A stretch of 64,000 nucleotides of DNA from Candidatus Saccharimonadota bacterium (GCA_019352195.1 JACAFG010000001.1:130485-194484), one strand, 5' to 3'; counted from the first letter of the stretch, positions 29,739 through 34,079 are shown. Notes: generated by a model from the sequence alone, not told the origin. Numbers and translations: made by a program.

Positions 29739-29814
29739 GGGGCATTAGCTCATCTGGTAGAGCGCTTGCATGGCATGCAAGAGGTGGTCGGTTCGATCCC
29801 GACATGCTCCACCA
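29739..29814 (+). tRNA. tRNA-Ala (GGC)
   Basis: Cloverleaf, G3:U70 pair, anticodon loop ATGGCAT, encoded CCA. Confidence 0.97.
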
Positions 29815-30109
29815 TATAGTCATTTTTACTGCGTTTTAGCGCAATATAGCATTACATCAAGAGCTGAGAGGCTATGTTTGATTTGATTCAGCACGCAGCT
29901 AAGTAGCGCTAACAATAAAATATAAACAGACAACCACTGGCACCAAAGCGTTCAGAAGTGCCATCAATCCACAAAGCGCCATCACTAGCTTCCTCTGGAG
30001 GTCTTTCTGTCTTGGTAGGTTCTATAAAGGGCGTAGATATTGACCAAGATCGTAGCTCCGAATACTGATAACATATCAGTACAGGGTCGTAGTCTGATAT
30101 CATAAGCTC

Positions 30110-30976
30110 ATGGATCACAAAGACCAGCAAAGCCCGCAACCATCCGAACGTGAGGGCTCAGAGCGTAGTAATACCGAAATTGATACCACAAAAGACCTGG
30201 AACGAATGGCTTTGGCCTCTGATTGGGCTCGAGCCGCGCACGACGTAGCCGAAACTACGCAAAACCCCGTCGCACTGCGCCTCGTTAAGAACTTCCTTAC
30301 GGATAGTGCCTTGGGGCATGAGACTCCGAATGGCGTGAGAAAGGTGGCGTCCTCAAGTGATAACCCCCCGAGAGTGGTGTTGGTCCCCGTTCTGCCGGTT
30401 GATTGTGATGTAAACGACCGGACTCGCGCTTAGTTGGCGCATAATGGAGGTCAAGCAGCCGCCTATTATGAAGGATCGCCGGGTTTCGTCTCGCTAAATG
30501 GGCGAGACGCAGTTGATCCTACCTGGAAAGGTATTTTGCTTTTGCACGAATTGGCACACGCAGAAGCGCATGATATGCAGCAGCGCAGGGGTGAAGATTA
30601 TAAAGAATCAGGCTGGTGGGACGAAGAGGTTGAAGTTTTTGCCTTTGAGCATGAGCTTATGGCAAAATTAGGTGGCGAATCATATGAAGTGTATGTAAAC
30701 GAGCAGCTCGAACAGTTTCTAGCAAAATACAATGATAGCGGGGTAGCTACAACAGGAGCTACGATTCCTCAGCTAACCGACGACGATCGCATCGAAGATG
30801 TTTTCGGCCCTAGCCTATCCGAGTGGGAGAGGAAGATCCGTAAAACAGCGGTTTGGTTTGATGTAGTTTATCGCATGTTTGACCGCAAATATGGCGAGCA
30901 CTCCCAACGGGACAAAAGAGGCTTCACAAAGCTTGTGTATGATCTCAACCGTAAAGACCGAGAGATCGAAAATTAA
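30110..30976 (+). pseudogene. Zincin-like (HEXXH) protein interrupted by an in-frame TAG at 30431-30433
   Basis: Contiguous same-frame ORFs; LLHELAH..EE motif in the second. Confidence 0.6.
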
Positions 30977-31074
30977 TGTTTCGATTTGTATCAAATATTT
31001 GAAGAACCCTTAGTTGGAAACTTGAACCTTAGCTCACAACTTAAAGGGCATAGCTAACCCCACCCCCTGGCTCC

Positions 31075-31117
31075 GAGCGTAACCCAGTGCTAACAGACAC
31101 GACAATGCTCCACCAAA
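31075..31117. repeat. att-like repeat 1
   Basis: gagcgtaacccagtgctaacagacacgacaatgctccaccaaa. Confidence 0.9.
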
Positions 31118-31152
31118 GCAAAAACCCGGCCTTGTGCCGGGTTTTTGCTTTG
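31114..31152 (+). terminator. Hairpin directly after att repeat 1
   Basis: caaagcaaaaacccggc / gccgggtttttgctttg. Confidence 0.8.
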
Positions 31153-31350
31153 ATAGTACGATCGGGATCGAATGTCGCGGGTTCGGTGACCGAGCGCCGT
31201 CTCGACGTGACAGTCTTCGAGACGAGGCACGAGAGAGGTGGGGAGGCCGCCTGTGGCAGGCGAGACACATCCCGTTATGCTCCGCCGACGTGCTCATACT
31301 TAAAGCCCCGAAAGGGTCTTTTCGATATAACAGCAAGGCTGGTACGCCTG

Positions 31351-31599
31351 CTAAGCTGCCTTTTCAACTAAGTCTATCCGTTTTTCTACGATATTGTATT
31401 CGGGAGTATGCTCAATGGTGGCCTCTATATCTGGCTGCTCGTGATCGGGAAAAACGACGAACCTTGCAATGTCCTTCGTAATTCTTTGGTACTCATCGAT
31501 ACGAAGTGGTATCACTCTGCCACAGTTAAGATCGGAGCATTCGCATCTAAAGTTTAGGGTTATGCTCTTGCCCGTGTCGCCCGGTGCTATTTCTTTCAC
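31351..31599 (-). CDS. Small putative Zn-binding protein (CEC..C...H); true start uncertain
   Basis: FRCECSDLNC and PDHE motifs; frame is open a little further upstream (ENEFILQSRND). Confidence 0.65.
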   Translation of the reverse strand: MKEIAPGDTGKSITLNFRCECSDLNCGRVIPLRIDEYQRITKDIARFVVFPDHEQPDIEATIEHTPEYNIVEKRIDLVEKAA

Positions 31600-31783
31600 T
31601 TTGTCAGCGAGTGAATCATTTCGACTCTGTAAGATAAACTCGTTTTCAGTCCACCTTATACCCCCCTATTTAGTGACGACTATATTAACACAAACATAAA
31701 CATAAACATAAACCATAAGCCTTAGCTTTGTCAGCTTTGATGGCGACAATCACGGAGCATGGCTAACTTCAATCTCCGCCTCT

Positions 31784-31826
31784 GAGCGTAACCCAGTGCT
31801 AACAGACACGGCAATGCTCCACCAAA
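31784..31826. repeat. att-like repeat 2 (42/43 identical to repeat 1)
   Basis: gagcgtaacccagtgctaacagacacggcaatgctccaccaaa. Confidence 0.9.
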
Positions 31827-32073
31827 ATATCTTATTTGTACGCCTATGAGGCTAATAACGCGTCCACTCGACACAAGCACCGCATTGCCGGTGCTTGTGT
31901 TTTGTTGTGTGGTTGAGGCGTAAGCGGGTTCGAGTCTCCTAAGGTCTCTTAAATACATTTGAGCGAAACCAGGTAGTGGCATAAATATGACACAATTTGC
32001 CTGGACTGATTAGGACATCTCTGTTATAAGATGTTCAGTTCTTACTCGTTCTTTTACAACCAGGAGTGAAACC

Positions 32074-32844
32074 ATGACTACGCCCGACAGGATCCGCCCT
32101 CGTTCGCTGGTTACGGCCGGCCGCAAGCCGCTTATTGTTCGTACGGCTAGCGGCCAGCTCGCCACGCCGAAGCCAGGCGAACGCATTACCCTGGATGATG
32201 CCAAGAGGCTGGTGGATGTCGTTTTTGCATTCGACACGACCGGCTCCATGTCCAGCAAGCTTCAGGGCTTGCAAAATTGTATGGCGGAGTTCATCCAGGA
32301 AATCGTCAAATTTCTGCTGGACTGGCAGTTCTCCCTCGTACCCTTCGGAGACCTAACGGTCCCCGGCGACAAGATCGTCGACAATCTTCCGTTCGTCAAC
32401 GATGCGGAGGCGGCAATCCGGATGATCCGGAGCGCTCCGCACTTCAGCGGCGGCAGCAATACCGGTGAATCTTCGCTCGAAGCGATGCAGGCGGCGATGT
32501 TCAAGCCGTACCGCAAGGGTGCGGTCAAGGTGATCGTTTTGCTAACTGATGAGCCTCCTCTCACGAGTCGGCAGCTCACGACCGAGGTGATCAATCTGCA
32601 GCTGCAGCAAAGGGAGTTCATCTGCTTTGTGGCTTCACCGTCTGGCCACGGCTATGAGGCCTTGGCCCACGACAACGGCGGCAAGTGGTACCCCATCGGG
32701 AGTTCCCTCAACACGGCCGACCTGCTGCAGTTCCTTCGCCAGCTACTCAAGAATGTCTCGCGGGTGTCCAATGACGTCCACCGCTTAGGCTGGGGATCCG
32801 TGGCTCGCTATCTTGCCAATCCTGATCGCAAAGTCCTGGAATAG
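32074..32844 (+). CDS. vWA domain protein
   Basis: DTTGSMS MIDAS, GGSN.GES and LLTDEPP. Confidence 0.9.
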   Translation: MTTPDRIRPRSLVTAGRKPLIVRTASGQLATPKPGERITLDDAKRLVDVVFAFDTTGSMSSKLQGLQNCMAEFIQEIVKFLLDWQFSLVPFGDLTVPGDKIVDNLPFVNDAEAAIRMIRSAPHFSGGSNTGESSLEAMQAAMFKPYRKGAVKVIVLLTDEPPLTSRQLTTEVINLQLQQREFICFVASPSGHGYEALAHDNGGKWYPIGSSLNTADLLQFLRQLLKNVSRVSNDVHRLGWGSVARYLANPDRKVLE

Positions 32845-32853
32845 GAGGCCTCG

Positions 32854-33777
32854 ATGTCCGTCCGCGCCAACAACCCTAACGCTGATTTCTATGTGCGGCT
32901 CGAGGTTGACGAAGACTGCACATCAGATCAGCTCAAGGCGTCCTATCGCAGGCTCGCCCACAAGTTGCACCCCGACACCAACCCCGACCCAGTTGCAGCC
33001 GAACAATTTAAGCTTGTCTGCTTGGCTTACGAAACGCTCGGTGACCCAAGTCGCCGGGCAGAATACGACCAACTGCGACAAGATCATTATCTCTCACAGC
33101 CGCCAATCCTCCGTCTCAGCGAAGTTTCGGTGGACTTTGGTTCGGTCCGGGCCGGAGAGAAAGTAGACCGGGTCGTATACATCTACAACGATGGCGGCGA
33201 TGGGGTGGGCGAGAATCTGGAGTGCACCACCTCCCCGATCTCAGGACCGTTTTGGCTTGTCGACGTTGCGGGGTTGGACGATTCTGATCCGGCCGACGCG
33301 ATTGGCAAGCTTGTGTTTACGACGGCGGTCGGCGCGAACGAGTTAGCTAGTGCGATCCAGCAGGAGATCCTGATCCACCTCATCAGTCGCCCTGACGTTT
33401 CTTCCCGGACTCTCGGATTGAAGGCAGAAGTAATTGAATCGCTTCGAGTAGCCCCCGCTTCATTTGGTGCCGTCACTTTCGACCATGCGACCGGGGTATC
33501 AGGTACTTCTCGAGACGGGACTTCGGCTCCGTATCGCCCTTATGTACGCTCCGGGACGTCGGCAACATCAGAAGCGCCTCGAATGATAACCGCACTCGTG
33601 GCGTGCTTGGCATACATCTGCGGACCATTCTTAACTATCTACTACGTCGTCAACGGAGGACATGCATCAGCGCCCATGCACAGTGCATGGCAAGGCCTGG
33701 TGACCTGGTGTTGCTTCGGTTGGCTGACTTCGTGTTTCTTGGTTGTCCCGATTATCTGGGAGTACATCGTCGATTAG
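32854..33777 (+). CDS. J-domain (DnaJ-like) membrane protein
   Basis: FY..LEV, LHPD and AYETLGDPSRRAEYD; Ig-like middle region; 2 C-terminal TMs. Confidence 0.88.
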   Translation: MSVRANNPNADFYVRLEVDEDCTSDQLKASYRRLAHKLHPDTNPDPVAAEQFKLVCLAYETLGDPSRRAEYDQLRQDHYLSQPPILRLSEVSVDFGSVRAGEKVDRVVYIYNDGGDGVGENLECTTSPISGPFWLVDVAGLDDSDPADAIGKLVFTTAVGANELASAIQQEILIHLISRPDVSSRTLGLKAEVIESLRVAPASFGAVTFDHATGVSGTSRDGTSAPYRPYVRSGTSATSEAPRMITALVACLAYICGPFLTIYYVVNGGHASAPMHSAWQGLVTWCCFGWLTSCFLVVPIIWEYIVD

Positions 33778-34001
33778 GAGCCACGTACGGCACTTCTAGG
33801 CTGTCCTGCCCGTCCTTGTGAGGCAGCTCATCCATGATTAAGAGTTGGCGAGTGCAGGTGGCTGGGTGAGCCAGGGGCATCCGGAACATCCCATCAACTC
33901 ATCTGCCACGTTAGATTAAGGCCCCCGGCGCTACGGCGTCGGGGGCCTATTACATGCAGAAGAAGATACTCGGTTCTGCGCCTGGCCAACTCCCGCTTCG
34001 C

Positions 34002-34043
34002 AGCGCAACGCAGTGCTAACAGAGCACACGATGCTCCACCAAA
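34002..34043. repeat. att-like repeat 3 (diverged)
   Basis: agcgcaacgcagtgctaacagagcacacgatgctccaccaaa; same spacing as repeats 1 and 2. Confidence 0.85.
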
Positions 34044-34045
34044 AT

Positions 34046-34079
34046 AAACACCCGAGCCCCAACCTCGGGTGTTTCTTTT
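34046..34079 (+). terminator. Terminator after att repeat 3
   Basis: aaacacccgag / ctcgggtgttt stem with T tract. Confidence 0.8.

Follow-up and report, generated by a model that had tools for sequence, protein, structure and literature searches.

Architecture and cargo of the array

The subject of this study is a tandem array of three short segments lying behind the gene for tRNA-Ala(GGC) in Candidatus Saccharimonadota bacterium. The window analysed is a whole stretch of 64,000 nucleotides (G000:C11:130485-194484) from a 1.19-Mb genome in 12 contigs, hereafter G000. An earlier note, made from the sequence alone, had described the segments as integrase-free cassettes bounded by attachment (att) sites of a large serine recombinase (LSR), and the layout that it gave was confirmed in its main lines. 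The last 11 nt of the tRNA re-occur from 31105, 31814 and 34031 and delimit segments of 1301, 709 and 2217 bp; searches for the Recombinase, Resolvase and Phage_integrase families revealed no gene within them. The junction copies form a 70-nt direct-repeat family in which copies 2 and 3 match copy 1 at 86% and 64%, and the near identity claimed for copies 1 and 2 (42/43) is obtained in the register 31075-31117 / 31784-31826, adjacent registers giving 41/43 and 42/44. In the tRNA the distance from the end of the T-loop hexamer to the 3' end is 18 nt, and in each copy a variant of the hexamer ends at 23 nt, so that the spacing of 10 nt in the tRNA versus 15 nt in the repeats is read directly from the sequence. 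A search of the whole genome found the 27-nt arm at the three array positions only, allowing up to 7 mismatches. The array comprises the following features.

29739..29814, plus strand: tRNA-Ala(GGC), the target site; its T-loop hexamer (29791-29796) ends 18 nt before the 3' end
29815..29880, plus strand: conserved cassette end that forms the proximal part of segment 1
30110..30976, plus strand: zincin-like gene with a HELAH motif (segment 1), 288 codons, in-frame TAG at 30431-30433
31047..31115, plus strand: junction 1, an element-side (P-type) arm with the hexamer at 31087-31092, then the 11-nt tRNA core
31114..31152, no strand assigned: perfect 17-bp hairpin opening segment 2
31269..31287, plus strand: degenerate fourth copy of the tRNA-Ala 3' end in segment 2, without the shifted hexamer
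31351..31599, minus strand: 82-aa Cys/His mini-protein (segment 2), no Pfam family
31756..31824, plus strand: junction 2, P-type arm with the hexamer at 31796-31801, and core
31870..31901, plus strand: hairpin resembling a terminator, at the start of segment 3 and about 45 nt past copy 2
32074..32844, plus strand: gene with a von Willebrand factor A (vWA) domain, 256 aa (segment 3)
32854..33777, plus strand: J-domain gene, 307 aa, with a hydrophobic C-terminus (segment 3)
33992..34041, plus strand: junction 3, P-type arm with the hexamer at 34013-34018, and core
34038..34082, no strand assigned: terminal hairpin, candidate displaced host terminator

A hairpin follows each copy, as had been noted, and hairpins like that at 31114-31152 are also found after tRNA-Ser and tRNA-Lys(TTT) in G000. 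The terminal hairpin is likely the host's own tRNA-Ala(GGC) terminator, displaced by the array, because relatives have the same hairpin directly behind the tRNA.

The cargo announced by the earlier note is present, with one gene broken. The vWA and J-domain genes stand as described, and the vWA gene, used as a query, found no match in 52 other genomes of the order. The zincin-like gene is a single 288-codon frame but is broken by the TAG, across which its homologs (282-283 aa, 70-76% identity) run uninterrupted. The DNA of the mini-protein is 83% identical in another genome (G021), where it also lies behind a degenerate site-like sequence. Atlas and PHROG searches gave no family for the zincin-like or mini-protein cargo, only weak zincin-type leads. 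The three copies of the tRNA end are likewise real, but segment 2 contains the fourth, degenerate one. This array is partly decayed.

The shifted hexamer and its link to large serine recombinases

The 5-bp shift is genome-wide and beyond chance. Taking all tRNAs of G000, the shifted hexamer accompanies 16 of the 22 nearby copies of a tRNA end (at least 8 nt of the 3' end, within 8 kb downstream) versus 113 of the 2821 distant matches (4%), and no offset other than 23 nt exceeds 2/22 nearby copies. A stricter motif was found with 8/94 downstream versus 1/110 upstream matches sharing 6 nt, with 3/361 versus 0/348 sharing 5 nt, and with 5/1194 versus 7/1336 sharing 4 nt, where the enrichment is gone. 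The enrichment of shared cores begins at 6 nt, corresponding to tRNA positions 71-76, and the cores comprise 6-13 nt of the acceptor stem. This minimal core would place the crossover at tRNA positions 71/72; a first guess at 69/70 was dropped after the enrichment from 6 nt. With a crossover at 71/72 the hexamer would occupy bp 14-19 in the tRNA and bp 19-24 in the arm, within the published windows, which for the zinc-ribbon motif are bp 16-24 in the half-site of attP and a position 5 bp nearer to the crossover in attB (Rutherford et al., PMC3783163). The 5-bp rule invoked by the earlier note agrees with PMC3783163.

Using the motif as a criterion, we count 30 junctions at 12 of the 46 CCA-ending tRNAs of G000, a count that is circular as a test. 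They delimit 29 LSR-free segments at the 12 tRNAs, with lengths of 0.4-4.6 kb and a median of 1140 bp. In a hand-picked subset of the cargo of the other arrays (23 proteins taken to Pfam-type checks; 22 of 62 called open reading frames and 4 others), the matches include YoeB/YefM, ParE/RHH, BrnT/CopG, PIN, Zeta, methyltransferase, cupin, peptidase S51 and nucleotidyltransferase.

The same arm is found at the ends of elements that do encode a recombinase. G000 has four LSRs, three of which run antisense into the 3' end of a tRNA (Leu-TAG, Pro-TGG and Gln-CTG), and LSR matches are present in 26/53 genomes of the order. Seven of 26 intact LSR-tRNA junctions have a far end with the shifted hexamer, the other 19 leading to a contig end or to no site in the stretch read; the loci L081, L083, L103 and L105 gave no row in the junction table. 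The seven elements are the following.

G000, tRNA-Leu(TAG): 12.9 kb
G016, tRNA-Ala(GGC): 14.3 kb, prophage-like
G004, tRNA-His: 10.1 kb
G029, tRNA-His: 10.0 kb
G021, tRNA-Leu: 8.9 kb
G047, tRNA-Leu: 5.7 kb
G004, tRNA-Pro: 4.9 kb

In four of the seven an LSR-free unit of 0.8-1.6 kb comes next. Furthermore, four viral contigs (L134-L137) encode LSRs of the clade closest to P0001, the LSR linked to tRNA-Ala, and these recombinases overlap tRNA-Asn or tRNA-Trp ends; the two that were scanned carry Zot-like morphogenesis and rolling-circle replication genes and are therefore inovirus-like. On one of them, L135, an intact LSR runs through arm and core with no tRNA present, a layout that would be expected for attP or for an internal junction; that contig has no terminal repeat. 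Because the same arm ends LSR islands and an intact inovirus-borne LSR reads through it, the repeats are, as far as sequence comparison tells, the element-side arms of LSRs, and we have little doubt that they are LSR-type sites.

Sorted by the reading frame with which they run into the tRNA, the LSRs form groups that match the clades of a quick tree (from which three L085 rows, representing one mis-framed protein, were left out). A mirrored hexamer ending at +18 is present in 6/7 LSR junctions of one frame class, which is the canonical two-armed site, and in 0/16 and 0/7 of the others (0/23 for these two classes). The array junctions have it in 1/30 cases, and their right-hand sequences are common to different tRNAs. 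One LSR clade spans Gln, Leu, Asn, His, Trp and Ala tRNAs and two LSRs with 69% identity are located at Leu-TAG and Pro-GGG, which indicates that the choice of target is plastic.

The Ala arms are open in the frame of the one-armed clade that includes P0001 and the following LSR of the window, the sole candidate of its clade in G000.

59514..61229, minus strand: resident LSR, open frame of 571 aa, overlapping tRNA-Gln(CTG)

The clade of this tRNA-Gln LSR likely made the Ala arms. Copies of the protein in two further genera (G052 and G016) have 87-90% identity to it, with patches of shared element DNA, and no far shifted-hexamer site was found in the 16.7 kb up to the contig end. Coding constraint on the arms was looked for but not shown, the ratio of nonsynonymous to synonymous polymorphism (pN/pS) being 0.63-0.87 in the LSR frame, no better than 0.56-0.82 in the neighbour frame (helicase chance hit dropped, tRNA copies excluded).

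Two side observations concern the LSRs of G000. The tRNA-Leu(TAG) island (L117, G000:C3:97000-111683; 12.9 kb) contains a putative methyltransferase-like gene and a tyrosine recombinase, and is followed by a 1.6-kb LSR-free unit with putative toxin-antitoxin-like genes, all labels being given by the look of the sequence. The fourth LSR (G000:C2:87040-88665) is not at a tRNA and ends within another frame, which we take to resemble the start of ychF.

Re-used tRNA site or decayed islands

The Ala arm pattern is present in 8/25 other genomes of the family (f1) and in 0/27 other genomes of the order; in a sample of the class it is found in 4/22 f1 genomes and in 0/378 others. Strict arm patterns gave 3 matches in genome_contigs, 2 in metagenome_contigs and 0 in viral_contigs, and one arm match in genome_contigs (L050) was rejected as a chance match within a helicase gene. 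Among 12 family relatives, tRNA-Ala(GGC) is followed by LSR-free units in three (three units in G010, one each in G013 and G016) and by an intact LSR in two (G001 and G016), while in eight there is no site within 4.5 kb or up to the contig end. None of the 12 shares the cargo of G000 at that site. Cargo turnover between relatives is real.

Two further comparisons illustrate this turnover. The first 66 bp of segment 1 occur in 3/401 genomes, always directly behind an Ala core and with no LSR; the gene that follows is zincin-like in G000, EamA in G024 and cupin in G019, and the same arm family closes each unit. A single-gene EamA unit measures 1133 bp at tRNA-Ala(GGC) in G010 and 1099 bp at tRNA-Ala(CGC) in G024, two different genera; its protein is 84% identical between them versus 55% for one 169-aa core stretch, which suggests that the unit was transferred whole. 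With five EamA homologs of greater distance (29-43%), a unit bounded by att sites was not clearly recognisable. The host terminator hairpin also stands at the start of the first unit in G010 and G013, which hints that units can form by capture of the DNA between the tRNA and an orphan arm. The genomes G013 and G018, tried as a filled and empty pair, are weak evidence: they share the downstream gene, but the tRNA of G018 is present just as its 3' half and the upstream flank is another one.

We propose, with a probability of about 0.58, that the integrase-free segments are mobile, compact cassettes with LSR sites, stacked at the tRNA. The units would descend from recombinase-bearing islands and prophages, would have been stacked one after another, and would move again, by action in trans, when a recombinase of the matching clade is present. 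In this mechanism the zinc ribbon would read the T-loop hexamer of the tRNA, the cut would be made at 71/72, and the element arm would present the hexamer 5 bp further out. As only the left arm has a recognisable motif, the restored tRNA would stay a target, with the newest unit beside it; the left arm alone would set the identity of a site, so that the tRNA is a host-type site after each insertion and every junction an element-type one. Recombination between the tRNA and a junction would then be the same pairing for entry and for exit, excising one or more units, and the predicted circles begin at the tRNA and measure 1.3, 2.0 and 4.2 kb, with none between consecutive junctions. Circles between consecutive repeats, which the earlier note had expected, are disfavoured because two element-type arms would have to recombine.

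Several observations weigh against this proposal. None of the four G000 LSRs is at tRNA-Ala, the resident tRNA-Gln LSR is only 39% identical to P0001, and the LSR of G016 at tRNA-Ala(GGC) goes with the mirrored-motif class, being the exception among its 7 junctions. In canonical systems attL and attR do not react unless a directionality factor is present (PMC3783163), so that the repeated use of one tRNA needs explaining; the missing mirrored motif of the right arm may be what keeps the tRNA site reusable. The gene of segment 1 is interrupted by a nonsense stop, and segment 2 is composite, given the degenerate tRNA-Ala 3'-end copy inside it. C-terminal LSR remnants of graded length lie at tRNAs or junctions of relatives (L030, L091, L093, L094, L096 and L097), which shows that LSR elements do decay, and the LSR-free units are placed on the distal side of LSR islands, as decayed cis-mobilizable elements (CIMEs) are. 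The baseline for the EamA transfer is a single 169-aa core stretch, and the relatives compared are other species, with no same-species strain in the sample. Finally, contigs of X1, the one run containing this DNA and perhaps the assembly source, bridge the array (29756-36000) with no other letters, and neither a circle nor a skip joint was seen at the array sites in these contigs, which drop rare forms.

Many of these observations are those expected if large LSR islands or prophages had been trimmed in place to a terminator, the gene or genes and attR, and pushed outward by the next arrival, the units being inert or moving only in cis with a neighbouring intact element, by CIME-type accretion. 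The intact LSRs at tRNA-Ala(GGC) in G001 and G016, the latter on its prophage-like element followed by a 1.6-kb unit, agree with such a history, as do the graded remnants, the broken gene and the lack of circles in contigs. The arms seldom have a stop in the LSR frame (within 17 codons in 2/34 arms, versus 17/34 and 25/34 in the other frames), which fits descent from LSR genes. There are also precedents, since 15 Dehalococcoides ssrA islands lack an integration module (PMC3146451) and CIMEs are always distal (PMC7563491). However, no LSR remnant is detectable by tblastn (to E 0.05) in the LSR-free segments of G000, three cargos share one LSR-free end of 66 bp, and a single-gene unit of near-equal length is found at two tRNAs in two genera. 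Tight single-gene packing is hard to obtain by independent deletions: among the single-gene units, 11 picked by hand have their gene starting 56-119 nt past one site and ending 40-252 nt before the next. Moreover, repeated stacking itself requires the tRNA-side product site to stay usable. We regard trimming in place as less probable than mobile cassettes. The scenario by which the earlier note had said its proposal could be refuted is borne out in part, because G000 has no LSR at tRNA-Ala, relatives have LSRs at this tRNA and remnants at others, and the segment 1 gene is broken; what holds of that proposal is the LSR type of the sites, supported by the shift, the island ends and the read-through on L135, together with the cargo turnover.

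Scars of tyrosine integrases, of the tycheposon or the classical tRNA-island type, with the 5-bp shift as an incidental feature, are largely refuted and very improbable. Tandem elements with partial tRNAs between them are known for such enzymes: tycheposons and partial tRNA copies are stacked at tRNAs of a streamlined genome, including tRNA-Ala(GGC) (10.1101/2020.12.28.424599), and G000 has two tyrosine recombinases. None of these two overlaps a tRNA end, against three of the four LSRs, LSR elements end in the shifted arm and an LSR reads through it, and the shared cores go down to 6 nt versus attachment sites of about 40 nt in tycheposons, of which 910/937 have a tyrosine recombinase and many have replication genes (10.1101/2020.12.28.424599). 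Equally remote is the idea that the repeats are tRNA-like processing signals or pseudo-tRNAs cutting a long transcript: copy 2 can form an acceptor-like stem of 7 bp that ends in CCA (z -1.66) and several arms have a short 5' motif like a tRNA start about 70 nt upstream, but copy 1 has no such fold (z +0.38), Rfam at gathering score matches the tRNA only, and the conserved part is a fixed-distance hexamer common to LSR island ends.

Relation to known systems and further observations

Integrons have an IntI tyrosine recombinase beside attI, and their palindromic attC sites fold as single-strand hairpins. The likeness lies in units of one or two genes lined up behind a single entry site and in the toxin-antitoxin, methyltransferase and cupin cargo; single-gene units with turnover are found here, segment 3 having two genes. 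The arrays differ in having no IntI or fixed platform, no palindromic attC, terminators of their own and a tRNA as entry site. The two PF00589 matches of G000 are on other contigs and none is at the array, and the arms are direct repeats that end in the tRNA core, with RNA folding z scores of +0.38 and -1.66, no attC model having been run. Tentatively, Saccharimonadia-type bacteria might run a distributed LSR counterpart of the integron, with tRNA entry sites, one-sided sites and a borrowed recombinase. The tRNAs would be the points of entry because the universal T-loop is what the enzyme reads, circles the size of a gene would carry one element arm, and integration and excision would be one reaction without a directionality factor. 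The recombinase would come from passing inoviruses, prophages or islands, and a quarter of the tRNA genes would be cassette docks.

Tandem integrase-less islands as such are already known from CIMEs and from Dehalococcoides, and we found no description of the gene-sized tRNA form in the parts of the literature available. CIMEs are integrase-free with their att sites kept, measure 1.2-13 kb and lie distal to intact elements in tandem; they are decayed forms derived from integrative and conjugative elements (ICEs) or integrative and mobilizable elements (IMEs), mostly with tyrosine integrases, and move in cis by conjugation (PMC7563491). Here, too, att sites are kept and recombinase and transfer genes are absent, no search having been aimed at relaxase or type IV secretion system genes. 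As to a derivation from ICEs or IMEs, relatives show LSR remnants and elements, and the parents seen look phage-like (no relaxase or type IV secretion search was made), comprising LSR islands, a prophage-like element and inovirus-like contigs. Often there is no intact neighbour, and no intact element adjoins the tRNA-Ala(GGC) array.

The Dehalococcoides ssrA islands are arranged in tandem behind the gene for transfer-messenger RNA (tmRNA), with 3'-end repeats preceded by a conserved motif; their DsiB, a serine recombinase of about 540 aa, is encoded on the opposite strand and overlaps the left site, and the 15 islands mentioned above are without the integration module (PMC3146451). These features have counterparts here. 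In contrast, they have one tmRNA target, a 20-bp repeat, insertion in the T-loop and a six-gene DsiA/DsiB module (PMC3146451), which was not found in the three segments, while the arrays of G000 use 12 tRNAs, cores of 6-13 nt in the acceptor stem and units with a median of 1.1 kb, often of one gene.

The staphylococcal cassette chromosomes (SCC, SCCmec) and ECC elements also combine LSRs, one reusable chromosomal site, several attR copies, variable cargo and circular intermediates, but at rlmH, with a CcrAB pair and over tens of kb (PMC6222049), whereas the target here is a tRNA and single LSR genes overlap tRNA ends. With the phage serine integrases LI/A118, phiC31 and Bxb1 the system shares the 5-bp motif shift and the order Resolvase, Recombinase, zinc ribbon; those enzymes have the motif on both arms and products that are inert without a directionality factor (PMC3783163), while the array junctions have it on one arm and the target is re-used. 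The sites thus agree with LSR att sites in the 5-bp outward shift, in a very short core (for the inferred cut position) and in their place at the ends of LSR elements, and depart from them in the second arm.

Published surveys would pass over such units. Islander (2015) states that serine integrases are not known to target tRNA genes and rejects islands below 2 kb or without an integrase (PMC4383910), and the 2025 TIGER resource keeps both filters, an integrase on board and at least 2 kb (PMC12424338), so that island finders miss LSR-free units. In the main text of Durrant et al., as far as available, the word tRNA is absent (PMC10083194), and the available parts of PMC12884075 and PMC6813254 contain nothing on this layout. 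Within the accessible full-text literature, to which subscription journals and supplements do not belong, nothing was found that describes LSR cassettes of gene size at the tRNAs of Patescibacteria. If the units are mobile, they would explain the gain and swap of accessory genes in reduced-genome Patescibacteria without integrons, and LSR sites that are one-sided and reusable would break with the textbook rule on directionality; LSRs reading the universal T-loop could serve as broad-host integration tools. If they are only decayed islands, the repeats would still be a precise, though modest, marker of past LSR integrations.

Some minor observations concern the DNA of the array itself. Just past the hairpin that opens segment 3, a T-loop-like stretch (31905-31945) has no Rfam match and folds ordinarily, and before junction 3 a non-coding stretch of 150 nt (33800-33950) contains a strong G+C hairpin (33919-33948, z -1.9). 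Otherwise the spacers have little structure or none. A scan for promoters was at chance (3 against an expected 3.1). A motif rich in A and T, a few bases past the CCA, and near-identical terminator hairpins within 40 nt of many G000 tRNAs, are common to unrelated tRNAs and array junctions, and may be element scars or tRNA processing signals.

Other arrays gave similar details. In the tRNA-His array of G029 (L072), a 13-nt copy of the tRNA end without the hexamer lies between two shifted-hexamer sites, 127 bp past the first; it resembles the degenerate copy in segment 2 and was perhaps left by another integrase type. Two atypical tRNA calls (Asp-GTC and Arg-GCG; G000:C3:82247-82483), 90 bp apart and without an encoded CCA, unlike the other 46, are possibly element-borne. 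At the tRNA-Leu(CAA) array, contigs of runs X1-X3, which drop rare forms, showed no circle joint at the sites; at locus L118, one X1 contig has a 34-nt opposite-strand joint from the first junction (near 2520) to the end of the stretch (near 19900), possibly an inverted site copy further on. The window also contains a neighbouring tRNA-Ala with a segment behind it.

21657..24146, plus strand: tRNA-Ala(CGC) with one LSR-free segment of 2.4 kb, its end site showing the 5-bp shift with a different arm type (helix-turn-helix reading frame)

The far site of this segment starts a double helix-turn-helix frame on the minus strand, to which a frame at a similar site of G019 is 41% identical, and which may be an alternative C-terminus fused to the recombinase in the circular form.

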